This document shows, piece after piece, positions 1-25,182 of a stretch of DNA of 64,000 nucleotides. The notes under the pieces are model-generated. The model searched no databases. It was not told where the DNA came from and worked only from the letters and a program-made list of their open reading frames with translations. The stretch comes from a bacterium (lineage in GTDB: Bacteria > Fidelibacterota > UBA2242). Both the position numbers and the translations under genes were made by a program. The stretch is from contig JAHJGX010000253.1 in NCBI GenBank assembly GCA_018824205.1, positions 126-64,125 of the forward strand, in the 5' to 3' direction. The first letter of the stretch is position 1, and each line of letters opens with the position of its first letter.

Positions 1-14
1 TTTCAAACCTGGCC

Positions 15-512
15 GTGCCGGTGATTCTCTTCGTTGTGGTTGTCCTCGGCTTCTTTAAAAAGATAAAAGTCTACGAAACCTTTATCGACGGCGCCAAGGA
101 GGGATTTTCCGTTGCGATAAACATTATTCCCTACCTTGTTGCGATTCTGGTCGCAATTGGCATGTTCCGGGCTTCCGGCGCTATGGGCTTCTTTATTAAA
201 ATCCTGTCGCCCCTGACCAATCTGATCGGTATGCCCGCGGAAACCCTGCCCGTGGCCCTGATGCGTCCGCTGTCGGGTAGTGGATCTCTCGGTATCGTTA
301 CGGAACTGATGACCCAACACGGCCCCGACTCCTTTATCGGTCGGCTGGCGTCCACCATGTTCGGCAGTACGGAAACGACTTTTTATGTGATTGCCGTATA
401 CTTTGGCTCTATTGGTATCCGTAAGTCCCGTCATGCGATTGCATCGGGACTCATCGGCGATATGGCCGGTTTGCTGATGGCGGTTTTTATCTGTCAGATC
501 GTTTTTGGGTAA
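15..512 (+). CDS. spmB: SpmB-like nucleoside-recognition-domain inner membrane protein (spore maturation protein B homolog). The frame is open to the window edge, so the true start may lie just upstream.
   Basis: 165 aa hydrophobic ORF whose N-terminal FIDGAKEGF motif and size match the SpmB/nucleoside-recognition (Gate) family. GTG at 15 is reported as M, and there is no stop between position 3 and 15. Confidence 0.55.
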   Translation: MPVILFVVVVLGFFKKIKVYETFIDGAKEGFSVAINIIPYLVAILVAIGMFRASGAMGFFIKILSPLTNLIGMPAETLPVALMRPLSGSGSLGIVTELMTQHGPDSFIGRLASTMFGSTETTFYVIAVYFGSIGIRKSRHAIASGLIGDMAGLLMAVFICQIVFG

Positions 513-560
513 TAACAATCCGCAAGATGTAAGAAAACCTTCTGCCGACGAAACAAGAAA

Positions 561-720
561 CCATCCTAAATCTGTCTGAATTCCGTTCGCATCAGAAAAC
601 ACCCTTGATGGTTCCGTCATGATGGCGGCGCCATATAGACCGATATAAAAACAACGTTATTGAATAGCACCGATGCAATAATCTGAATATTCCACCAGTT
701 TATCACTGATTATCAGAATA
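561..720. repeat. R160 direct repeat, copy 1. The 160 bp unit is about 97% identical to 1596-1755 and contains the palindromes ATGGCGGCGCCAT and CTGATTATCAG.
   Basis: Direct comparison with 1596-1755 shows only 4 mismatches. Copy 1 ends exactly at the stop of the DUF2442 gene. Confidence 0.9.
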
Positions 721-943
721 TTTTTAAGTGTTTCTCAATAGTGTCAGCAGATAGATCAGCACCACAATCCCACTCTATAAAATATCCACCATTTATAATC
801 TTCTTAAATGCATTTTGATTTTTCAATTCTGTAAAAGCTTCATATTTTAAATATGGACTAACGTCAAAAATCCCTTCCCGTCCATCTTCTGATATGATGT
901 GTAGGGTGCGATCTTTGTTTGGTTTTATTTTTACTATTTTCAT
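713..943 (-). CDS. DUF2442 domain protein, the putative partner of the upstream DUF4160 gene in a TA-like pair
   Basis: 76 aa ORF with the DUF2442 signature (GGYFIEWDCGADLSADTI). It overlaps the upstream gene by ATGA at 940-943 and is AT-rich. Confidence 0.6.
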   Translation of the reverse strand: MKIVKIKPNKDRTLHIISEDGREGIFDVSPYLKYEAFTELKNQNAFKKIINGGYFIEWDCGADLSADTIEKHLKIF

Positions 944-1212
944 TGATCAAGTCCTTTAATTTTGAAAGGAGTTTTACCATTTACTGCAAGGTTCCAATCA
1001 GCCAGTAAATCTTCCTGATGAATTTCAATCCAGGCTACTACTAATTTTTGTTTCCTCGGAGATATTTTACCTGCAAGCAATTCACCATCAGGAATAGAAA
1101 AGACTGCCACTTCCTCCTGATATTCAGCGTGAATATGTGGAAGATTATGTTTTTCGATATCTCGAAAAAACATCCGAATTAAAATTCCATAAAACATTGA
1201 AATAGTTGGCAT
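940..1212 (-). CDS. DUF4160 domain protein, the first gene of a DUF4160/DUF2442 two-gene module
   Basis: 90 aa ORF with the DUF4160 hallmark (GILIRMFFRDIEKHNLPHIHAEY). An AGGAG SD precedes the ATG at 1212. Confidence 0.6.
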   Translation of the reverse strand: MPTISMFYGILIRMFFRDIEKHNLPHIHAEYQEEVAVFSIPDGELLAGKISPRKQKLVVAWIEIHQEDLLADWNLAVNGKTPFKIKGLDQ

Positions 1213-1370
1213 TTAAATCTCCTTGAAATTATTATCGATTCATTCATAAACCGTTTAAAATTAAATTTAATCTTAAAGCAATCAACTTTTTTTATTCTTT
1301 TATATGCTTTCTGTTTCACCTTTTTTTTCTGAATGAATTATTTTACTGCAAGATTTTCTCAATATAACGA

Positions 1371-1452
1371 TATAGTGAGTGGATTGATTCCATGTAACAT
1401 CCTCGCTATTTCAACGCTTACAAATTAAAAGATATTTCAAATTAAAACAAAT
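1371..1452. repeat. R82 direct repeat, copy 1; its second copy is at 3637-3720
   Basis: About 82 bp are near-identical between the two copies, with one A/G difference (TAT AG(A)GTGAGTGGATTGATTCCATGTAACATCCTCGCTATTTCAACGCTTACAAATTAAA[A/G]GATATTTCAAATTAAAACAAAT). Both copies lie upstream, in the minus-strand sense, of an AT-rich cargo gene. Confidence 0.9.
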
Positions 1453-1573
1453 AATGTTTTTATTTTCAAATAATATCAAGATTTTCGATTATCCTTCTTT
1501 TGCCGCATCCTTAAGGGAAGATAACCGTTGTTTTTTCTTTACATTTTTACAAGAATTTGAGAATTAAGAGACT

Positions 1574-1593
1574 AAAATAAAACTATTTGGTCA
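1574..1593. repeat. 20-mer AAAATAAAACTATTTGGTCA, identical to 8611-8630. The two copies bracket the 7 kb block from R160 copy 2 to the end of res.
   Basis: Exact 20/20 match read directly at both places. Confidence 0.85.
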
Positions 1594-1595
1594 AG

Positions 1596-1755
1596 CCATC
1601 CTAAATCTGTCTGAATTCCGTTCGTGTCAGAAAACACCCTTGATGGTTCCGTCATGATGGCGGCGCCATATAGACCGATATAAAAACAACGTTATTGAAT
1701 AGCACCGATGCAATAAACTGAATATTCCACCTGTTTATCACTGATTATCAGAATA
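1596..1755. repeat. R160 direct repeat, copy 2
   Basis: See 561-720. Confidence 0.9.
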
Positions 1756-1963
1756 ATTCAAAGCCGTGCAAATTCCAGTTAGGGGGCTTAGTTTCCCATC
1801 GGGACTCCGCTGATAGGAGCAACCCCTGCTTGTTCCAATGGAACTCCTCTGGAGCACTCTGACGCCGAATTAAAGATTTTCGGCCATCGTTATTTTATTT
1901 ATATGGCGTCAGGTGCGAAGCAGATTCGTTAGGTATAGTATGAATTAGCTAAAACAAGTTATT

Positions 1964-2761
1964 TCATAATGAATTATCTTGACTTGCAATAATAAGAACA
2001 CCATGCAAAAATATTTCCGTAGAATTGTGAATTTCATATCGATATATGCCTGGATTAACATATTCTCCTAAATAACTCTTAACATCCCATCGCTCCATAC
2101 TATCATTAAACTGAGAAGTGTGTAAAAGAGAATTAATAAATTCACCCTGTGAATTATAGATTACAATTGCACATGTATCTGGAAGATGAGAGAAGACTAT
2201 TATTTTATCTCCACGAGAGGCTTCTATAGTACTTGAGCCAAAATAAGGGTTTGGAAAAACATTAGGTGAAGTACCTACATTTGTTGTATCTAAAAAAAAG
2301 TTTAGATTTAAGTCCTTGAATAAATATCTATCGTAGATATCCATGATTCCTGATTCAATATGAAGTCTATTACTGTTTTTTAATTGAAAAATAGAATCAA
2401 TTCCATCTTGATAGCATACTTCTGTTTCTTTTATTATTGCTACTGTTTTATTCCTCTCATCGTACCAGATCGTTTGTTCTTCGTCATTAAATAGGAACAT
2501 TTTTGATAATTCAATTTTCTTTACTTCCAGTTCAACAATTTCGTCATACACCATTAAAGATTCATAAATAGAATCAGCTTCTAAACTAAGAATATTTAGA
2601 GAATCAGAAAAAGTAATAATTATTCCAGAATTTTCAGGTACTATTTCTTTATTAGCAATTGAGAATGTTAATGTAAGAAATTCTTTGTTTTCTAAAATAA
2701 TGTTGTCTTCACATGAAAATATGATGAGAATAATAAATAAAACACTGGATTTTTTTAACAT
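1964..2761 (-). CDS. AT-rich secreted lipoprotein with a T9SS CTD-like C-terminal domain
   Basis: Signal peptide with a lipobox (LIIFSC). The C-terminus NVFPNPYFGSSTIEASRGDKIIVFSHLP...VIYNSQGEF...GIYRYEI resembles the Por-secretion sorting domain. GC is very low relative to the flanks. Confidence 0.5.
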   Translation of the reverse strand: MLKKSSVLFIILIIFSCEDNIILENKEFLTLTFSIANKEIVPENSGIIITFSDSLNILSLEADSIYESLMVYDEIVELEVKKIELSKMFLFNDEEQTIWYDERNKTVAIIKETEVCYQDGIDSIFQLKNSNRLHIESGIMDIYDRYLFKDLNLNFFLDTTNVGTSPNVFPNPYFGSSTIEASRGDKIIVFSHLPDTCAIVIYNSQGEFINSLLHTSQFNDSMERWDVKSYLGEYVNPGIYRYEIHNSTEIFLHGVLIIASQDNSL

Positions 2762-2923
2762 ATATTACCCTTCTATTTCCGTATTATACCTAACGGTCAA
2801 GGTATGAGATACGGCGATTCACGAAGCGATTCGCTTTTGTTTTCCGACAATCTTCTGAAAAATCGGCAAACTTCAAATTCTTCGGACAGCTCAAGCCGTT
2901 ATCTCCATACCATAGATTTGTTA

Positions 2924-3616
2924 TTATAGTGATTCAACGATTTTATAATAATGGTCTTTTAGTAAATCAATAATTAAATATTCAAAAAATTCTGATAAAA
3001 ATACAGATTCTGTATAAACTTGGTTTTTGAATTCGTTAAACATAAAATTTTTGGTACTCGTAGAACCTAAATCATCAAGGTGCGATAGTGCTATGTCATA
3101 GGGTAAACAAAAAAAAGTATCTATAATTCTTTCTGAGGTACTTATCAAGATATAGTTTTCCTCTTCCTTTAAATTAGTATTATCGATATACTTTTTTACA
3201 ATATCTTCATCAAAATGGAATGATAATTTATTCCTAATTTCTTTTAATATCTTACAGAAATTATCAGGATTTTGATAATCATATTTATTTTTTAGATCAA
3301 TATATTTTTTAGAATTAACCTTTGATAATATTTTTTGAGGTATCTTTTTTTCAATATCTTTTTTGTATGTTTTTATAACTTCATATAAGGTTGATGATAA
3401 TAGGATTAATAAATCTACTGTATTTTTTGTATGGATTAATTTATCTGAAGATTCTTGTTGTAAATTATCTTCATAGATTCGCTTTAAGATAATTCTTAGT
3501 GCATTAATAAGTCTTGATATTTGTATTGATAATAAAAATTCACTTCTCTTAAACTTTAAAAGTTTATCATAATCTTTCACTTTGAGTTTAATATATGTCT
3601 TATCCATAAGAAACAT
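2924..3616 (-). CDS. Hypothetical K-rich alpha-helical protein with a possible HEPN-like Rx5H motif (EIRNKLSFHFDED)
   Basis: 230 aa ORF with very low GC and no signal peptide. An R-N-x4-H motif sits in the C-terminal half. It lies immediately downstream of mod and is separated from it by R82 copy 2. Confidence 0.35.
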   Translation of the reverse strand: MFLMDKTYIKLKVKDYDKLLKFKRSEFLLSIQISRLINALRIILKRIYEDNLQQESSDKLIHTKNTVDLLILLSSTLYEVIKTYKKDIEKKIPQKILSKVNSKKYIDLKNKYDYQNPDNFCKILKEIRNKLSFHFDEDIVKKYIDNTNLKEEENYILISTSERIIDTFFCLPYDIALSHLDDLGSTSTKNFMFNEFKNQVYTESVFLSEFFEYLIIDLLKDHYYKIVESL

Positions 3617-3636
3617 CTGTTTTAGTAAAATCTAGC

Positions 3637-3720
3637 TATAGAGTGAGTGGATTGATTCCATGTAACATCCTCGCTATTTCAACGCTTACAAATTAAAGGA
3701 TATTTCAAATTAAAACAAAT
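3637..3720. repeat. R82 direct repeat, copy 2
   Basis: See 1371-1452. It lies between the mod stop (3728) and the start of the hypothetical gene (3616). Confidence 0.9.
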
Positions 3721-3727
3721 TTGGATT

Positions 3728-5680
3728 TTACTTCAGAATTATAAGAGTCTCATCGCCTGAAATATTTCTGATCTTCATCCGCAACGGCTTTTTTTTATCA
3801 CTTAGGATTTTTCCATCCCAGAATTCTTTAGTTTTATTACCATCGACTATCAGATAACCGTTTTTATCAATCTTTAATTCCGTATCGCTCTTCCAGATAC
3901 CTTCTTTATTTGTGCAGTCCAGACTGATAAGTTCAATGAGTTCCAGACCTTCTTCGCTGATCTCAATAGGAGTATATTTTTTCCCGCTTTCTAATCGCTG
4001 TAATCGTCCCTTTTCGTTGAACTCATGAATCTTCTGGTTCAGGCGATCGCTGATAAACCGGGTGATTTCGATTTCGTACCTGGCATCTTTTTCTTCGATT
4101 CTATATTCAACAATATCATCCACCACAATATCGTGCAGTAAATTCTTTAAATCCTTCAGTTCAACTTCTATGGCAGTCGGATTATTATCCCTGATAAATT
4201 TCTCTATCTCCTTATAATCGTCGACATCCACATAATAGATAATCACTTTCTTGACGTCGATCTCAAGGATTTGCAATTCCTGGTTGATAATCTTATTGAT
4301 CAAAGGTTTATCCAGCACTTTTTCCGTATTATCTATCAGGTTCGGCACATATACCGGAATTGTACCAACTTTCGTGTCTTGAATAACTCCGAACCAGAAT
4401 TTCCCAACGCCCTCGATGTTCTTCTGCAATCCCGGAATCAGCTTTGCCAGTTTGTCCATGGTCTGGGCCGGGTTACGAAAAAGACTAATACCGTCTTTAA
4501 TCTCCACTATCTTAAACTCTGCTCCCGCCTCGATCAGTCGATCACGGGTCGTTTGTATGGAATTGATGCCAACGTCCACATGAATAAATTTCCGACCAAG
4601 ATCATGGGCTACTTTCGCTGTGACTCCACTGCCTCCAAAGAAATCTGCTACTATCATATTTCTATTACTACTTGCTCTAATGATGCGTTTCAATAATTCA
4701 GCTGGTTTTTGTGTTGTGTAACCAACATTTTCGTCTTCCTTAAATGCATATGTACCAATCCCAAAATCGTTATTGAATAATTCAGCAACATTATCCTTAC
4801 CTATCCAAGTATCCCACACAGGTTGCGGCTTTTTTAATCTCGCTTCTTCTATTGCTTCTTCTTTTGCTAAAGAGGAATTATTTGAAATATATGTTTTTAG
4901 AAAATTCTTGCCTCCTCGACTACTTTCTTGTCTTCTTGTGTAATACCATCCTTTAGAATCACGTTGAAGTGAATTCCTAACATAATCTCCATATCCTCTC
5001 CTAGCCGGGAACTCGAAATACGCATCCTTATGTTTATAAAATAAAATTGTTTCATGTGATTTAGGATATAACGCTCCAGCCCCCATAAGGCCACAGACCC
5101 AAATAATTTCCGAAAAATCATATCCTGGAAAAACTTCATCAAGTAAGACTTTTACATAATGAACAATATTCCAATCCAGATGGACGTATATACTGGCATT
5201 ATCACTCATCACGGATTTGATTGCCATCAGGTTTTCATACATCCAGTTCAGGTAATCTTCCTTTTTCCAGATGTCGCCGTACATTTTCTCTTCAAATGCC
5301 TTTAGTTCTTCTATTTCCAGTTCCTGCTTGGCTTCTTTGATCTTTTCGGCCAGTTTCGGATTACGACGGATATAGACTTTCCTGGCGTAATCGGCGCCGC
5401 TGGCAAAAGGCGGATCGATATAGACCAGGTCGACTTTTATATTCTGCTCTTTCAGGTAGGCGCAGGCAGAGACACACTCGCCCCGGATGATGAGATTCTC
5501 CGGATTGTCACCACGGGTCTCGACCGTCTCCAATTCATAATAAGGCATCCCGCGCTGAATTTTGGAAAACACTTTATCATTTTCCCGGTATTGCAGCAGG
5601 CGACGGGTGCGGGTAATATTATTCAGGACCGCCTGTCCTGCAACGGTATTGGGTTCGTAGGGGATATATTTTACCGGCAT
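3728..5680 (-). CDS. mod: Type III restriction-modification Mod subunit (beta-class N6-adenine DNA methyltransferase)
   Basis: DPPF motif IV ([13 protein letters not shown]) precedes the FxGxG motif I ([12 protein letters not shown]), which is the beta-class order. It is 650 aa and lies 3 bp from res. Confidence 0.85.
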
Positions 5681-5683
5681 ATT

Positions 5684-8584
5684 CTAATCCTTTAAAAACG
5701 TATTTATTTTTATATTGACCTTTGCAAGGTTTACATTCAACTCATCCGAATCCGGCAGGTACAAGAAATCAAATTTCTGATAGCCGAATTTTGCTTTGTT
5801 CTGTTTAAGGAAGCTGGTTTCAACGAATTTCTTTTTTCCGACAAAATCAGGTTTATGGGCAAACCCCTCGCCCTTGGTTTCAATGATAAGGGCTTTGTAA
5901 ATCTCTTTACCCTTGCGTTTAATAATCAGAAAATCGGGTGTGTATTCACCGCAATTATTCCAGGAATTCCGCTCTTTGATAAAACAGTTAATTTTAAAAC
6001 CCGTAAGGTTGCGGGCGCCGTTATAATAAACTTCAAGCTTATTTTCGATGAAGTCCTTCAGTGTCAGTATTTTCTCAAGAATATCTTTTTCAAATCCGCT
6101 CTGATGAAAGTCGTATGGAATATAATGAAACGTCCTGTCTTTATTCAAAACAGCCGGGGAAGGCACGGTATGATTTTTAAACTGTTCAAAAGGCATGACC
6201 ATATTACCCAAACCGGATTGAATCAACCCATTCTTATATGCTTCGTATGAAAATTTTAATTTATCATCGTCAATGCTAACGGGCTGTTTGCTCTTATCTA
6301 AATCAAGTATCTTATTCGTATCGTCTTTATCAGGATACAATTTGTCGTTTTTTTCAACATCAAGGAGTTTATCAATAATCAGCAGTTTTGCTTTTTCGGG
6401 GATGACTTCGCTTGTTGTCTGTAGCTCCCGTTTAATACTGAATGCCAGTCTGATCTGAGAATTAACCTGGTAAACATCATAAAGATCATTAAAAAATACC
6501 TGGTTGTCTTTCCGGTAAGTTATTGTTTCAAAAATACTGTTTAATATTTTACGATGCTTGTCTAAATCCGATAAAATAATCTGATGAAAACTCTCTTTGG
6601 AAATATCGAACAACCAATGATTAAAATTAGCAGTTTGCTGACCGGTCTCTCGGATGAATTCGCGGGTTGCCTGGTCGAGATTTTCGATCTCTCCGGTTCT
6701 GATCAGCGCTGTTATTCTATATTTATCGATATTATCCAGCAATTTCTTCAATTTTTTTACCGTATTCGGATTATCTTCCTGATCGATGAAAGTATAATTC
6801 ACCTTCAGCTGGCAGAATTCAATTTCCGGCAGTTGCAGATGTTCCATGCGTGAATGTCTAACTACCATTTCAAGTGCAGGATTTTTTCCCAGACTATTGA
6901 TCTCATCAATACTGGTATCCTGCTCTTTTTTCAGCTGACTGTTCAGCGTTTTTGCATTGAATTCATTCAGCCAGATGACTGCTGTTTCCTCTTTATCTTT
7001 TTCTACCTGACGCAAACAGCGGCAACTGGTTTGGAGAACCATATTTTTCGGGCAATCGCCCTTTTGGGAGAGAATGACTCCGGTCAGACTGCGACAGTCC
7101 CAGCCCTCTTTACCAATCTGAGCCAGCAAAATATAGCGTATGGTCTTTGATGCTTCCATTCCCGGAATATCGAGCGAGTTAAATAACAGTTTATTCTCTT
7201 TCGGGATTTTATGATTTTTATTACCGTCATGATTTTTCAGTATTTCTTCCGGACTAATATTTAGTGTACTTGTTAAAAACGGATGTACCTCCTCTTCCAG
7301 AGGATCAATATTGCCACAATAGATAGCAAGTTTCGCAATAGCGCCGTTTTCATATACTTTATCACCATATATTTCCTGAAAATCTCTGACGCCTTTCTCT
7401 ATTATTTGAAGTTTATTCAGATTCTCGGCAATTTTCACTTTGGGAACTTTTAAAAAGGATTTGATCGCCGATACAAGCGGATAATAATAGACCGTATTGG
7501 TTATTTGAGAAAACTGGATAAACTCATTTTCTGCAATTTGGATTTTATCAGAACTTTCCAAATAAGGCGTCCCGGAAAATCCAAGCACAGTCGTAATATT
7601 GCCGGTCTGATTCCATTTATTTACGACTTGACGCAATTTTATATCGCTGTCCGTGGCATGATGAACCTCATCAATAAAGATAGAAAGGTTTGGGATTTTA
7701 CTAATCGCATTTCTTAATTCATTGGCGTATTCGTCTTTTTCATCTTCGGTTTTTTCAAATAAGTGCTGTTGATCATCCAGATATACCCGGTTCAATATCA
7801 CTTTCTCGGCGTTTACGACAAATACCCGACCAAATGGATCATGCAGACAGGAACTGACTTTTTGAGCATTAGGATTTTCCGCTTTGGTACTTCTCTTCGC
7901 GGATTTCGGTTGATCCAGGACTTCAAATTTGATCAATCGTTTGATGTTGCTCGCCGCCGGTTCCGGAAGCACCCAGGTCGGGTCGAAGTTAGCAATATTT
8001 CTGAGACTCGGCCCGATCGATGATTTTAAACCGGATGGAATCAGTACCAGAAAATTATGTGCAAAGTGCTTGTTTTCAGGTTCATTTTGAGCATAGTACA
8101 GATTCAGATAAATAATCGCCGCCATCAGGAAGGTCTTGCCCGCTCCCATCGGCAGACTCATCAGGTAATCCGGATAATCAATATCATAAAAAATGCTTTT
8201 TATGATCTTATCATAATCCAATTTGTCCGGATTATTGATAATCAGTTTTGCCAGATTTGGCAATATTTCCTTCCCGTTATTTTTTTGTAGTGAAAAGTCA
8301 TATAACGCATGGGCGTTTCTATGGTTTTTCAGATAATCTCTGGCTGTTTCGTTGATATTCAGTTTTGATAAATCGGAACCATTGGTAAAAAAACCTTCGG
8401 AAAACAGTTTCCAGAGCGGTTTATTTTCACCTTTAATTTTTAGAAACAAATAAGTTTCAATGGCTTCAATCTGGGTGTCGCGCAGTTCACCTTTGTTGCG
8501 TATATATTTTATGATTTCTTTTATGGTACAATCTTCTGATTGCAGCCATAGATTCGTTTTGGATTTTATAATCTGATTCAGCAC
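5684..8584 (-). CDS. res: Type III restriction endonuclease Res subunit (SF2 helicase plus C-terminal PD-(D/E)xK nuclease)
   Basis: Walker A MGAGKT, the DEAH-box variant IDEVHH, a TPDF...ETKG nuclease motif at the C-terminus, and a length of 966 aa. Confidence 0.85.
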   Translation of the reverse strand: MLNQIIKSKTNLWLQSEDCTIKEIIKYIRNKGELRDTQIEAIETYLFLKIKGENKPLWKLFSEGFFTNGSDLSKLNINETARDYLKNHRNAHALYDFSLQKNNGKEILPNLAKLIINNPDKLDYDKIIKSIFYDIDYPDYLMSLPMGAGKTFLMAAIIYLNLYYAQNEPENKHFAHNFLVLIPSGLKSSIGPSLRNIANFDPTWVLPEPAASNIKRLIKFEVLDQPKSAKRSTKAENPNAQKVSSCLHDPFGRVFVVNAEKVILNRVYLDDQQHLFEKTEDEKDEYANELRNAISKIPNLSIFIDEVHHATDSDIKLRQVVNKWNQTGNITTVLGFSGTPYLESSDKIQIAENEFIQFSQITNTVYYYPLVSAIKSFLKVPKVKIAENLNKLQIIEKGVRDFQEIYGDKVYENGAIAKLAIYCGNIDPLEEEVHPFLTSTLNISPEEILKNHDGNKNHKIPKENKLLFNSLDIPGMEASKTIRYILLAQIGKEGWDCRSLTGVILSQKGDCPKNMVLQTSCRCLRQVEKDKEETAVIWLNEFNAKTLNSQLKKEQDTSIDEINSLGKNPALEMVVRHSRMEHLQLPEIEFCQLKVNYTFIDQEDNPNTVKKLKKLLDNIDKYRITALIRTGEIENLDQATREFIRETGQQTANFNHWLFDISKESFHQIILSDLDKHRKILNSIFETITYRKDNQVFFNDLYDVYQVNSQIRLAFSIKRELQTTSEVIPEKAKLLIIDKLLDVEKNDKLYPDKDDTNKILDLDKSKQPVSIDDDKLKFSYEAYKNGLIQSGLGNMVMPFEQFKNHTVPSPAVLNKDRTFHYIPYDFHQSGFEKDILEKILTLKDFIENKLEVYYNGARNLTGFKINCFIKERNSWNNCGEYTPDFLIIKRKGKEIYKALIIETKGEGFAHKPDFVGKKKFVETSFLKQNKAKFGYQKFDFLYLPDSDELNVNLAKVNIKINTFLKD

Positions 8585-8610
8585 GCTTTAATTTATCCTT
8601 AAATAACCAA

Positions 8611-8630
8611 AAAATAAAACTATTTGGTCA
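8611..8630. repeat. 20-mer AAAATAAAACTATTTGGTCA, copy 2, which marks the island boundary
   Basis: Exact match to 1574-1593. Confidence 0.85.
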
Positions 8631-8675
8631 TGTTCCAGAGTGCAACCCCGGAACAAAGTGGAAGGCGACAATAAT

Positions 8676-9497
8676 TTATTCGGATTCAGTCTCGTGTGGA
8701 TTCGGACTGTCCAGTTTCTTCGGGTCTTTCAGACGTGAAATAAGTCCCTGGTTCAGGACGCCCGCCTGGGCGCCGTCTACAATGCGATGATCAAAGGTGC
8801 CGGTCAGCGGCAGCATCTTGCGGATTTTAATTTCCCCGTTAATAACCACCGGTTTATCCTCGATCTTACCCATCGTAATTACCGCTGGAATCTTCCCAAT
8901 CGGAAAGAGCGCCACCATTCCATATGACAGACCGAAAGAGCCTATATTCGTGACCATAATACTGCCGAAGGGATCGGCCGGTATTTTCAGGAACGGAAAA
9001 GCAAATCCCAGATCGAAAATCCAGAACTTGATCAGGACAAACAGCATTCTCCGAAAAGGCCAGGGAATTTTCGACAGAATTCCCTTTGAAGCGAAAGCCC
9101 CGGATTCTTCACCACTGCGTTTCTGTTCGGCTTTTTTCCGGATAATCTCCGAGATTTCTCCCACGCCCAAATCTTGTGCATTGCGCACGATCAAACCGGT
9201 CATATCCTTGCCCTTGATGGAAACCGTGACAAATACATCGGCGTTGTCACGAAAGACCACATGTCCCCGGCGGACAAAACAGTTGACGTCGGGTGCATCT
9301 TCATAAAGAGTTCTGGCGACAGCCGCTGTAACAAAGTGGGTAATCGTCAGTCGGCGCCCTTTTTTACGTTCCTTTTCGATATAGTCCACAATATCCGTCA
9401 CGTCGGCGTCAAAGATACCGTAGATCCGGCTGTCCACCGGTTGTTTATACACGGCAATTGCGAGTTTCCGCCAGGCTGTTGTATATCGCTCTTCCAA
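8676..9497 (-). CDS. Stand-alone 2-oxoacid dehydrogenase acyltransferase (E2) catalytic-domain protein with no lipoyl domain
   Basis: A DHRIVDG active-site motif near the C-terminus, a length of 273 aa, and no lipoyl or E3-binding region. Confidence 0.6.
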   Translation of the reverse strand: MEERYTTAWRKLAIAVYKQPVDSRIYGIFDADVTDIVDYIEKERKKGRRLTITHFVTAAVARTLYEDAPDVNCFVRRGHVVFRDNADVFVTVSIKGKDMTGLIVRNAQDLGVGEISEIIRKKAEQKRSGEESGAFASKGILSKIPWPFRRMLFVLIKFWIFDLGFAFPFLKIPADPFGSIMVTNIGSFGLSYGMVALFPIGKIPAVITMGKIEDKPVVINGEIKIRKMLPLTGTFDHRIVDGAQAGVLNQGLISRLKDPKKLDSPNPHETESE

Positions 9498-9658
9498 AAT
9501 AGTCTCCTTGTAGTTTGTAAAATCCCTCGGAATCTAATTTAGCTAAATCCCGGTAAAAGTCGACATATTTTTAAATTCCCGGGTGGGTCATTACTTTTTC
9601 ATGGATATCGAAAGATCCGTTGCCTATTTTACCAGAGAATATTTTACAGGAGAATCCC

Positions 9659-10552
9659 ATGTTTCGAAAGTCCCTTTTTATCATCACGATAATCGTTGTC
9701 TCCCAACTCGGTCACGGTAAAGATCTGCCATCGTCGAAAAAGATATTTGAAATGTCAAATGTGGAAATCGACCAACTGCTGACTGAAACCAGTCAAAAAC
9801 AGATGACGATTACCGGGCGAATTAATTATTTCTCGGAAATGTTTCTGGATATGCCCTATGATCTGACCTGCACCGGCGACGGCCCTTACGCCCTTTATGA
9901 AACCCGTCCGCTGGTAAACTTTGACGAAACCAACTGTATGGTATTTTGCGAGCATGTTCTGGCCCTGTCTATCTCCGACAGCTGGGACAATTTTTTCAAT
10001 AACCTGCAGCAGCTTCGCTATAAAAATGGCATGATCGGCATGCGCAGCCGGAACCACTACACCATGGCGGACTGGCTGCCGGAAAACAGTTGGCTATTAG
10101 ACGATATTTCCCGGAAAGTGGGCGGCCAATACACGAAAACCACCACCCGCACAATTTCGCACAAAACATTTTTCCAGAAAAAGGGTATCAGCGATATGCG
10201 CTATGTCGGGCCCGATCGGGAAATGACCATTGACTATGTACCAAAAGAGGATTTACCGAAAGTCAAAAAGAACGTCAGGCCCGGCGATATTCTGGCGCTT
10301 ATCTTTGCCGACAAAACCGATATCTTTTCCGCCCACATGCTGATGATCGCCGAAAAGAACGGGAAATTATACATTCGCGAGTCATCCAGCAGTAAGATGA
10401 CAACCTTTGACACGCCCTACGATGAATGGGTCGAAAGTAAAAAAGACGCTGATCGTTATGTCGGGTTGTGTTTTATGCGGGTACGTGACGATCTGAACCT
10501 GCCCGGAAAAATCATCCTGCCCTGGAAAATTCCGCAACTGAAAAACCGGTAA
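9659..10552 (+). CDS. Secreted DUF1460 family protein, putatively a cell-wall-hydrolase-like protein
   Basis: Signal peptide MFRKSLFIITIIVV. The conserved Cys/His-containing block NCMVFCEHVLAL is typical of DUF1460. An AGGAGA SD lies 7 nt upstream of the ATG at 9659. Confidence 0.45.
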   Translation: MFRKSLFIITIIVVSQLGHGKDLPSSKKIFEMSNVEIDQLLTETSQKQMTITGRINYFSEMFLDMPYDLTCTGDGPYALYETRPLVNFDETNCMVFCEHVLALSISDSWDNFFNNLQQLRYKNGMIGMRSRNHYTMADWLPENSWLLDDISRKVGGQYTKTTTRTISHKTFFQKKGISDMRYVGPDREMTIDYVPKEDLPKVKKNVRPGDILALIFADKTDIFSAHMLMIAEKNGKLYIRESSSSKMTTFDTPYDEWVESKKDADRYVGLCFMRVRDDLNLPGKIILPWKIPQLKNR

Positions 10553-23749: not shown

Positions 23750-24367
23750 ATGAAATGGCAAGACTTCCTCAAACGGTTCGGCAACGAGATTATCTTTGAA
23801 TCCGGCAGTATTTCTGTCGGAGAGGCAAGAAGCCGCAACATTCAGAATAGATTATACCAGTGGGTGATGCAAGGAAAGCTCATTAAACTCCGCAGGGGCA
23901 TTTATACATTTTGCGCACCCTATCGAAAAGAAACGCCATCAAGCGAATTGATTGCAAACCGGCTGGTGTACCCGTCATATATTTCACTGACTTATGCTCT
24001 CTTTTTTTACAATCTCATTCCTGAAGGCGTCTTTACAGTTACAAATGTCACGACGGATCGCGGGCAATTTTTCACCAATCCATTCGGAAGATTCCGTTAT
24101 CATCATATCAGCGCGGATTATTTCTGGGGGTATTATCTCCTGGATCAGGGATCGCATCAAATTTCGATTGCCTACCCCGAAAAAGCCATTCTTGATTTTT
24201 TCTACTTTCTGAAAGGTGATATATCTTCAGACAGAATCACAGAAATGAGGTTTCAAAACCTGGATCAACTTTCGGCAGAAAGGATGATCGATTATCTCCG
24301 AAAGTTTAATCGTCCAAAACTATATCGAATAATGCAGTTAGCGCCCTTTAATAAATTTATCAAATAA
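23750..24367 (+). CDS. abiEi: AbiEi-family antitoxin/transcriptional regulator of a type IV TA abortive-infection system
   Basis: The N-terminal wHTH block QWVMQGKLIKLRRGIYTF is typical of AbiEi_4. It lies 15 bp upstream of the AbiEii gene. Confidence 0.7.
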   Translation: MKWQDFLKRFGNEIIFESGSISVGEARSRNIQNRLYQWVMQGKLIKLRRGIYTFCAPYRKETPSSELIANRLVYPSYISLTYALFFYNLIPEGVFTVTNVTTDRGQFFTNPFGRFRYHHISADYFWGYYLLDQGSHQISIAYPEKAILDFFYFLKGDISSDRITEMRFQNLDQLSAERMIDYLRKFNRPKLYRIMQLAPFNKFIK

Positions 24368-24381
24368 GGTTCGGATTTTAC

Positions 24382-25182
24382 TTGAAACAACATGCTATCG
24401 AGATTGCGAAACACGTTCCAACAGGATTCCATCGACAAAACCTTTTGAGAGAATATCTGCAAGCCGAGATTTTATATGCAATGCAGCGATCGGGCGCTTT
24501 TCTGAATCTCGCTTTTGTCGGCGGCACAGCCCTGCGGTTTTTATATCAACTTCCCCGATATTCTGTTGATCTGGATTTTTCTCTCGAAAACACCCAAAAT
24601 TATGATTTTCCGAAACTTATCAAAAAAATTGAATCCCGATTGATCAAAGCCGGATATAGATTTTCATCAACAGCAAAAATTGATCGCACCGTACAATCCA
24701 TGACAGTAAAATTTGAAGATCTGTTACAGGAAGCCGGTTTGGCTGCTCAATCAAATCAAAAACTATCCATTAAAATTGAAATCGACCGTAATCCTCCCGC
24801 AGGCGCTGACACCGATTCTACGATTATCCGCAAACACTTCTTTTTACATTTGTGGCATCATCATATCTCTTCCCTTTTTTCAGGAAAAATACACGCCCTG
24901 CTGACCCGCAAATGGACAAAAGGCCGAGATATTTACGATTTGATCTGGTATCTCACTTTAACGAATAAAGTCGGTCCCAATTTTACTCATCTGAATAATG
25001 CACTTGTACAGACCAGGTGGAAAGAACAGCCGTTGACGCCGCAAAACTGGAAGATGTTTATCGCTGACTATCTAAAAAAGCTGGAATGGGACAGTGTCGT
25101 CGATGACGTTCGGGATTTCCTGGAGAATCCGGAAGATGTGGATTTGCTGGATCGGAATAATGTGATGAGATTGTTGATATAA
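24382..25182 (+). CDS. abiEii: AbiEii/AbiGii-family nucleotidyltransferase toxin (DUF1814)
   Basis: LAFVGGTALRFLY...RYSVDLDFS is a nucleotidyltransferase motif, and the length is 266 aa. Confidence 0.75.
   Translation: MKQHAIEIAKHVPTGFHRQNLLREYLQAEILYAMQRSGAFLNLAFVGGTALRFLYQLPRYSVDLDFSLENTQNYDFPKLIKKIESRLIKAGYRFSSTAKIDRTVQSMTVKFEDLLQEAGLAAQSNQKLSIKIEIDRNPPAGADTDSTIIRKHFFLHLWHHHISSLFSGKIHALLTRKWTKGRDIYDLIWYLTLTNKVGPNFTHLNNALVQTRWKEQPLTPQNWKMFIADYLKKLEWDSVVDDVRDFLENPEDVDLLDRNNVMRLLI

Follow-up and report, generated by a model that had tools for sequence, protein, structure and literature searches.

The 64,000-nucleotide (nt) stretch analysed here, hereafter the window (contig JAHJGX010000253.1 of assembly GCA_018824205.1, from a bacterium of the Fidelibacterota), contains an AT-rich island of restriction-modification (R-M) genes, candidate toxin-antitoxin (TA) genes and other cargo. 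The island lies between two convergent core genes, an E2-like gene and spmB. In related genomes, this interval is a hotspot for defence and TA genes flanked by core genes; in the window, where the recorded Pfam domains (about 1-62 kb) include no recombinase, it holds two versions of itself, head to tail. The explanation that is favoured here, with somewhat better than even confidence, is that cargo is exchanged by recombination in a hotspot with conserved edges, and that two alleles were stacked by one additive event.

The initial annotation had read the island as a variable locus, whose modules are swapped between conserved flanks. The comparison of the spmB-E2 interval across relatives, which was set beforehand as a test of this idea, gave the predicted result, a hotspot with alternative cargo: the interval is empty, or contains only the R-M genes, or contains other cargo. 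Since the gene content varies and the repeats of the island are tied to the variable cargo, the locus is neither invariant among relatives nor a simple local duplication unrelated to its cargo. The earlier interpretation is therefore supported, with the refinements described below.

Two versions of one locus in the window

The features of the island and of its flanks are the following (positions in the window).

3..512, plus strand: 3' part of spmB, with a Gate/nucleoside-recognition domain (PF07670, E 1.3e-15); right core flank, convergent with the cargo
558..723, minus strand: R160 copy a (D1a), right edge of unit 2
713..943, minus strand: DUF2442 gene, cargo 2, dhiA-like antitoxin candidate
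940..1212, minus strand: DUF4160 gene, cargo 2, dhiT-like toxin candidate
1361..1465, minus strand: R82 copy a (D2a), 5' of cargo 2
1466..1573, minus strand: spacer of unit 2, between the 20-mer and R82
1574..1593, minus strand: 20-mer copy 2, start of unit 2
1593..1596, no strand assigned: tandem junction, at which R160 copy b ends and 20-mer copy 2 starts
1593..1758, minus strand: R160 copy b (D1b), right edge of unit 1
1759..1963, minus strand: GC-richer 205-nt 3' flank of the CTD265 gene
1964..2761, minus strand: CTD265, cargo 1, predicted lipoprotein
2924..3616, minus strand: hyp230, cargo 1, HEPN-like candidate
3629..3733, minus strand: R82 copy b (D2b), between the mod stop codon and cargo 1; the discrete element proper spans about 3629-3727
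3728..5680, minus strand: mod, N6-adenine DNA methyltransferase of the Type III kind
5684..8584, minus strand: res, coding for a protein of 966 amino acids (aa)
8585..8675, minus strand: E2-res intergenic region, 91 nt, left edge of the island, with 20-mer copy 1 at 8611-8630
8676..9497, minus strand: E2-like gene (PF00198, catalytic domain of 2-oxoacid dehydrogenase acyltransferases only); left core flank

The three families of direct repeats that had been reported are present far beyond chance, with slightly different lengths. R160 is 166 nt long, with 96.4% identity between 558-723 and 1593-1758 (blastn E 5e-76). R82 is 105 nt long, with 90.5% identity between 1361-1465 and 3629-3733, and 97.6% over an 83-nt core. 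The 20-mer, AAAATAAAACTATTTGGTCA, is exact at 1574-1593 and 8611-8630, and 100 shuffles gave no match to it, even with 2 mismatches allowed. There is no further copy of R160, R82 or the 20-mer within the 64-kb window, and none off the E2-spmB locus in the window, in the 113 fetched loci (designated L and a number below) or in viral contigs.

The gene order on the minus strand is as first described: E2-like, res, mod, hyp230, CTD265, DUF4160, DUF2442. With the repeats, it falls into two units. Unit 1 consists of the 20-mer, res, mod, R82, hyp230, CTD265, 205 nt and R160; unit 2 follows directly, with the 20-mer, a 108-nt spacer, R82, DUF4160, DUF2442 and R160, and then comes spmB. The geometry is X..Y-X..Y, which is that of two versions of one locus head to tail and differs from an attL-attM-attR pattern, with its three equal repeats. 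The repeat families are the parts that both versions have in common. As to the proposal that repeats partition the island into cassettes, there are two modules, each with R82 and R160, and not an array of many cassettes. The cargo is indeed more AT-rich than its surroundings: in a windowed profile, the GC content is about 0.48-0.52 in the flanks and 0.20-0.45 inside the island, with a minimum of 0.20-0.30 over hyp230 and CTD265.

The right flank requires a comment. A minus-strand open reading frame (ORF) starting with ATG, 3..620 (205 aa), was considered as spmB and rejected, because it is antisense to the real spmB on the plus strand, whose product has 81-96% aa identity with the SpmB proteins of L001-L010. 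The translation of this ORF has no family match and is rich in arginine, glycine and histidine. It is a spurious antisense ORF, which could mislead annotation around R160. Since spmB is on the plus strand and ends at 512, R160 is in a 3'/3' intergenic region and not at a gene start. On the other side of the island, the 20-mer copy 1 is preceded, in the E2-res intergenic region, by an inverted repeat, GTTCCGG..(C/T)TGGAAC, which is read as the probable terminator of the E2-like gene.

For the spacer of unit 2 (1466-1573), no similarity to res-mod or to any other fetched sequence was detected; the idea that it is a decayed remnant of mod was rejected, the score being no better than those of shuffles. 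Segment 1759-1963 was considered as a copy of the E2 flank or of another local sequence, and it has no similarity to them above shuffles; nor does it have a match in Rfam. Its first 25 nt or so match what is visible, 25 nt up to the end of the contig, of the sequence 3' of a gene in L112 that codes for a 480-aa protein sorted by the type IX secretion system (T9SS). L097 lacks the sequence corresponding to window 1735-1838, so that segment 1759-1963 is partly deleted there.

On the minus strand, the tandem junction reads ...TTTAGGATGG-CT-TGACCAAATAG... Exact-protein look-ups recovered contigs with the same arrangement from three NCBI metagenome-assembled genomes (MAGs) as well as from ENA assemblies and JGI metagenomes. 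The exact junction string (40-80 nt) is present in L081-L085. L087, whose 87.8-kb contig has 97.6-98.4% identity, and L097/L098, with about 97%, are collinear with the window on both sides of the junction. Within the window species, the layout appears not to vary: all recovered contigs that cross the junction show it or are compatible with it. The sole within-species differences seen are changes around R160 in L097/L098 and a swap in the central part of mod.

The window comes from a metagenome, contigs break inside the island in many assemblies, and one sample, JGI 3300032737, yielded two different alleles (L097 and L111), all of which would fit an assembly artefact, in which the assembler concatenated the hotspot alleles of two strains. 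This is a very improbable explanation. Indeed, the identical junction is found inside contigs from at least seven samples or independent assemblies, obtained with several assemblers and including contigs of 19.5 kb and 87.8 kb. The sequence around it carries strain-level single-nucleotide polymorphisms, with 97-100% identity between assemblies, and the junction sequence is unique rather than a shared k-mer path. Such strain-level differences around an identical junction make an artefact very unlikely.

Two observations concern the right part of the tandem in other contigs. L103 and L104, from different samples and assemblers, begin at exactly the same nucleotide, 68 nt 5' of DUF4160, which suggests a branch point of the assembly graph, with alternative upstream sequences in those populations. 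In L097/L098 (L098 950-1236, L097 2260-2383), R160 copy a is replaced from about 35 nt past the DUF2442 stop codon (window position about 680 downwards), by other, non-homologous DNA and then by a GC-rich element of about 275 nt, which forms one long imperfect hairpin (-110 kcal/mol, z = -5.6). This element resembles a miniature inverted-repeat transposable element and has no match in Rfam or in viral contigs. Both contigs end inside it, L098 near the end of the element.

The E2-spmB interval in related genomes

A search with the E2-like protein retrieves MAGs of Marinimicrobia (Neomarinimicrobiota/Fidelibacterota). The E2-like gene and spmB are convergent neighbours in the genomes of the nine closest species, and the content between them is variable. 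The two genes bracket the interval in L001-L005, L007, L008 and L010; in the genome of L006 and L113 they are on two contigs. The alleles of L111, L112 and L113 were reached via homologues of mod. The contents of the interval are as follows.

L003, L004, L005 and L008: empty, about 40-100 nt
L001: gene for a 445-aa lipoprotein, on the other strand
L002: gene for a 415-aa lipoprotein, on the other strand, and two more genes
L007: E2-res intergenic region, a 43-aa remnant of the 3' end of mod, R82, a HEPN-like gene and a Fic gene (SoFic-type)
L010: deletion remnant of the L007 type, truncated R82, YefM-YoeB
L111: E2, res, mod with a different target-recognition region, R82, gene for a 269-aa protein
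L112: res, mod, R82, gene for the 480-aa T9SS-sorted protein
L113 (same MAG as L006): res, mod, 120 nt, spmB, without R82, R160 or cargo

There are thus four empty sites and at least seven different fillings, and R82 stands before five unrelated sets of cargo. L007 and L010 have a common res-mod deletion joint. In L113 (2660-2740), a 20-nt direct repeat, TCCCAAAGGGAATCTTCGAT, is found in the last codons of mod and just past its stop codon, at the place where homology to the R82-bearing alleles ends.

The claim that alternative cargo is framed by R82 and R160 is borne out in these relatives, except that only the spmB-proximal 45-52 nt of R160 are common to other species. This part (558-609 in copy a) is also 3' of the cargo in L007 and L010. 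The distal 115 nt or so (610-723 in copy a) were seen only in both units of the window and in its close relatives, for instance L103, L104 and L097.

The statement that no integrase or transposase is present in the window is also in line with the data: none is found among the precomputed Pfam domains of the contigs that match the window (about 1-62 kb), which is not a fresh scan of every ORF. No integron integrase or Phage_integrase domain is found in the genes of the window region.

The edges of the island are more conserved than the core genes beside them. The nucleotide identities between the window and L007/L010 are:

E2-res intergenic region: 95-98% (95-98% in L111 too)
pseudogenised mod remnant: 87-90%
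R82: 89% in L007 (truncated in L010)
R160-proximal part: 87-90%
E2 coding sequence: 74-79%
spmB coding sequence: 76-84%

Similarly, between the window and L111 the identity is 91-96% for res and 96% for R82, and about 80-83% for E2. The closest relatives in core genes, L001, L002 and L003, lack the island. Two of these segments are neutral, the remnant of the mod pseudogene and the intergenic stretch that has lost the gene after it, and yet they are more alike than the adjacent core genes. The island was therefore transferred horizontally, each time into the same E2-spmB site, and its edges are younger than the flanks. In all three lineages (L007, L010 and L111), the step up in identity starts about 25 nt before the stop codon of E2.

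R82, R160 and the origin of the tandem

As an element, R82 is discrete: it spans about 95 nt, has sharp ends on both sides and is missing from the allele without cargo (L113). Its 3' end (..CTCTATAGCTAG) coincides within about 2 nt in five alleles that have unrelated cargo, L010 being the exception. Every copy examined (a and b in the window, L007, L111, L112) contains GAGGA, 6 nt and an ATG, which opens a mini-ORF of 9-16 codons (MESIHSLY..). According to the alignment, every copy also holds two TTTAATTTG motifs 22 nt apart (window 3629-3665 and 1361-1400, minus strand). This part of R82 may be a promoter with a leader, or what is left of the 5' end of an ancestral gene.

It is possible, on a tentative estimate, that R82 is conserved because it works as promoter and leader for the downstream gene and is not merely an arm for recombination, a function that would be compatible with the exchange of cargo by recombination. 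R82 is always directly 5' of the first cargo gene and in the same orientation, with the GAGGA-ATG mini-ORF and both TTTAATTTG motifs in every copy, and it is 96% identical between the window and L111, where the 3' half of the adjacent mod is at 83-91%. Such a high identity is, however, equally expected of a segment that travels with exchanged cargo. Moreover, a sigma-70 scan gave no promoter conserved between the two copies, and the distance to the start of the cargo varies (12, 148 and 60 nt).

The start of R82 resembles the reverse complement of the end of R160: ATCC-AAATTTGTTTTAATT and ATCCTAAATCTGTCTGAATT match at 16 of 20 positions with one gap. The score of this inverted repeat is 24, against 12.4+-2.6 in shuffles (p ~0.003), a value that is modest after several comparisons by eye. 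R160 copy b ends exactly at the motif, and the tandem junction is there.

Other signs of a mobile element or of a structured RNA were looked for. Neither strand of R82 or R160 has a significant fold (z -0.2 to -2.0), and the consensus fold of five R82 copies has 0 compensatory pairs. Rfam (E<=1) gave no match over window positions 1-10000 and L097/L098, and there is no tRNA or tmRNA gene in the window. There are no attC-like structured inverted repeats at R160 or R82, no dispersed copies of the motifs in the window and fetched loci, no target duplication at the ends of the island, and no transposase domain over about 1-62 kb of the window. Three origins were considered and rejected: a phage or viral origin, as R82, the distal part of R160 and the 20-mer have no exact match in viral contigs; a high-copy element, as a metagenome scan with an R160-proximal 23-mer gave only this locus, in a collection that is evidently incomplete for the lineage; and an att-type triple repeat or target duplication, as empty (L005) and filled sites have no common core.

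In the favoured explanation, the convergent E2-like/spmB interval is, in one Marinimicrobia clade, a site at which AT-rich modules for addiction and defence accumulate after horizontal acquisition, together with some surface proteins. The conserved edges are non-coding: the 91-nt intergenic region after E2, with the 20-mer, the R82 of about 95 nt after mod, and the spmB-proximal part of R160. Cargo would be exchanged between lineages, most likely by homologous recombination, with these edges and the adjacent gene ends as arms. The window species holds an R-M-bearing version (20-mer, res, mod, R82, hyp230, CTD265, R160) and an R-M-less version (20-mer, spacer, R82, dhiTA-like TA, R160). The stacking of the two would most likely be one additive event, anchored by homology on the spmB/R160 side and completed by an illegitimate join at GGATGG-CT-TGACC. 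The route would be homology-facilitated illegitimate recombination or the Campbell-type integration of a fragment in circular form, and not the replacement of one allele by another. The loss of an R-M or TA module would be self-penalising. With a potentially addictive module in each unit (R-M in unit 1, the dhiTA-like TA in unit 2), there would be a penalty on replacement, whereas an addition could be tolerated. The direct repeats would leave the array collapsible, by deletion, into any of three single-unit alleles.

Several observations weigh against this explanation. Island-bearing lineages have E2-like genes with a nucleotide divergence of about 20%, at which exchange mediated by RecA should be strongly reduced. 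The rise in identity before the E2 stop codon is abrupt in the three lineages and is not scattered in E2, as expected of the end of a defined element. The sharp 3' boundary of R82 in five alleles and its absence without cargo (L113) do not obviously follow from random illegitimate introductions, and the same side of the balance includes the weak inverted repeat between the R82 start and the R160 end (p ~0.003), with R160 copy b ending exactly there. In addition, a donor-type single-unit allele (E2, 20-mer, spacer, R82, dhiTA, R160, spmB) was not recovered among the loci compared, and no deletion product was seen there.

Another way to obtain the arrangement would be a duplication in situ: a single unit, from the 20-mer to the R160 end, would be duplicated in tandem by unequal or illegitimate crossing-over, and later one copy would lose res-mod and one would have its cargo replaced via R82 and R160. 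A tandem duplication gives exactly the X..Y-X..Y geometry, L007 and L010 show that res-mod can be deleted at the locus, and relatives provide documented cases of cargo replaced between R82 and the right flank. This history is nevertheless unlikely, because it needs at least three further events, because no similarity to res-mod, or to the sequence that follows the 20-mer in unit 1, was detected in the spacer 1466-1573, and because the two copies have diverged by 4% for R160 and by 10% for R82, whereas gene conversion would tend to make adjacent repeats alike.

The boundaries of R82 and of the island could also be those of a non-autonomous site-specific element with defined ends, either the segment from R82 through the cargo to R160 or the whole island, mobilised by an enzyme encoded elsewhere; the tandem would then result from two successive insertions. 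The presence of R82 only with cargo and with sharp ends on both sides, the possible 20-nt terminal inverted repeat (p ~0.003) with the tandem junction exactly at the motif, the abrupt step in identity at the E2 stop codon and the occupation of one site in lineages diverged by about 20% all speak for such an element. On the other side, the precomputed Pfam domains include no recombinase in about 60 kb, the island ends have no third att-type core repeat or target duplication, there is no other copy of the motif in the window or the fetched loci, R82 and R160 lack a significant fold or covariation, L010 breaks R82 at a different point, and the statistic of the inverted repeat is modest after several by-eye comparisons. 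Insertion of this kind is quite unlikely. The R82 boundary, the mini-ORF, the inverted repeat and the 20%-diverged flanks together nevertheless keep alive the idea of a site-specific cassette or element with its enzyme in trans. In its boldest, and decidedly improbable, form, R82 and the R160 end would be the ends of a small non-autonomous cassette, or the whole island would target the E2-spmB terminator region, with the enzyme elsewhere, as in an integron-like exchange platform that has no resident integrase. If the sharp boundary of R82 did reflect a site-specific mechanism, the locus would be of considerably higher interest, and such an integron-like platform would operate across Marinimicrobia lineages about 20% apart in core genes.

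Cargo genes and known systems

The mod product has a Pfam N6_N4_Mtase domain (3.1e-35), and its best match is with models of Type III methyltransferases (PADLOC MTase_III, 4.6e-41). Residues 185-325 or so (window about 4717-5128) have 12-30% identity to the allele of L087, against 84-100% in the rest of the protein. This central swap looks like an allelic exchange of the target-recognition domain (TRD). Further variants of mod, of 621-628 aa, are found in L111, L112 and L113, and contigs of several assemblies break inside mod, which fits strain heterogeneity there. The res product has a ResIII (superfamily 2 helicase) domain at residues 139-341, which passes the cut-off (E 4e-8). Its C-terminal endonuclease signal is weak, the RE_endonuc and TnsA-like matches at 874-922 being only sub-threshold. 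It does not match the PADLOC models of Type III restriction enzymes, from which it is too divergent, and it has no sequence relative in the PDB.

In the canonical Type III systems, EcoP1I and EcoP15I, mod precedes res. The system of the window resembles them by its match to Type III Mod, by a variable TRD with both ends of the protein 90-100% identical, and by its 966-aa partner, a putative helicase-nuclease. It differs from them by the order of the genes, res then mod, which is the opposite of that of EcoP1I/EcoP15I, and by a Res without a PADLOC restriction enzyme match. The same res-mod order is found in the homologous operons of L108-L110, which are the closest relatives of mod outside the clade and which have neither R82 nor the E2-res intergenic region. 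In the Logan contigs L109 (595-14501) and L110, the res-mod homologues (about 68% nucleotide identity) are on an element with a Bacteroidota-type tyrosine integrase, a helix-turn-helix controller-like gene and DUF3987, which adjoins YhcG-like and prokaryotic Argonaute (Piwi) genes. In L108, an AAA_15 ATPase gene and a gene for a 267-aa protein are inserted between res and mod.

The cargo of unit 2 is a candidate TA pair. The DUF4160 protein (PF13711, E 5.6e-25) scores 87.5 bits with the NCBIfam model toxin_DhiT, whose cut-off is 100, and the DUF2442 protein (PF10387, E 2e-13) matches DhiA weakly (19 bits, cut-off 200). The DUF4160 gene, the toxin candidate, comes first and overlaps the DUF2442 gene by 4 nt (940-943). 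Homologues of the DUF4160 protein number 4120 at E<=1e-10, and those with about 80% identity are found in thousands across phyla. The dhiTA system of Dickeya dadantii is organised as a DUF4160/DUF2442 pair (PMC8198452). The pair of the window is like it in composition, in having the toxin first and in the 4-nt overlap, but it scores below the NCBIfam equivalog cut-offs, and its antitoxin has 76 aa for a model of 160 positions. It is therefore best described as a putative relative of the dhiTA family, not an equivalog.

In unit 1, hyp230 is predicted to be a helical protein with a conserved IRNKxxFH motif (Rx5H, the HEPN criterion being Rx4-6H), in which R128 never varies among the 40 members of the family, and H134 is kept in at least 90% of them. 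By this motif, it is a HEPN-like candidate. It was compared with the 223-aa HEPN-like protein of L007, and the two are not homologues (BLASTP E 0.4); its 59%-identical relative (L105) is in an unrelated context without R82, so the idea that its homologue travels with R82 was not retained. CTD265 has a lipobox (...IIFSC, read from the translation) and a sub-threshold C-terminal sorting domain of the T9SS. Some of the cargo thus appears not to be defensive: CTD265 and the proteins of L112 and L001/L002 are predicted surface or secreted proteins. Across alleles, the cargo comprises R-M, dhiTA-like, YefM-YoeB, Fic/SoFic and HEPN-like candidates, plus lipoproteins and T9SS proteins.

Far from the island, on the plus strand of the window (23750-25182), a gene for AbiEii (PF08843, E 4e-23) follows that of a 205-aa protein with a faint match to AbiEi_4. 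This pair is a probable second addiction or abortive-infection module, of the AbiEii/AbiEi-like type.

The E2-spmB island is real but fairly ordinary genome plasticity, of a known kind of hotspot. It is a clean, small example of the turnover of defence and addiction modules in the streamlined, uncultured marine Marinimicrobia/SAR406, whose mobile DNA is little known, and it is younger than the host lineages, yet always at one site and without a resident recombinase. The presence of two alleles side by side is consistent with addictive modules being added, not replaced. The E2-spmB interval and R82 also offer practical handles to find new cargo in the clade, such as the hyp230 family or the 269-aa protein of L111.

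Core defence hotspots without the hallmarks of mobile elements, possibly transferred by recombination in conserved flanks, have been described, for instance cDHS1 of Pseudomonas aeruginosa (PMC10250203), and the defence-island hotspots of E. coli are of a comparable, core-gene-flanked kind (PMC10121019). The island shares with them a fixed pair of core genes around a variable region of low GC content, which is empty or holds different defence or TA systems, and the lack of a consistent hallmark of mobile elements. It differs from them by its size (0-8 kb), by its occurrence in an uncultured marine phylum, by the conserved non-coding segments inside it, by its two stacked alleles and by some surface and T9SS cargo.

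Like integron arrays, the island has co-oriented modules, each with a conserved non-coding element, and new modules stacked beside old ones. Unlike them, it has no intI and no attC-like repeats, and its direct repeats are both 5' (R82) and 3' (R160) of the cargo, at a single locus.

The additive displacement arrays of type VI secretion system (T6SS) effector-immunity modules have been explained by homology-facilitated illegitimate recombination (PMC5361080). In these arrays, and in those of Rhs and contact-dependent inhibition orphan modules, the repeated anchor is a coding 5' region and the genes that are kept are immunity genes, whereas in the window the anchors are non-coding, the modules that are kept are R-M and TA, and there are only two units. 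The likeness is that modules are added beside the old ones, that copies of the anchor are repeated, and that selection to keep the old module is proposed.

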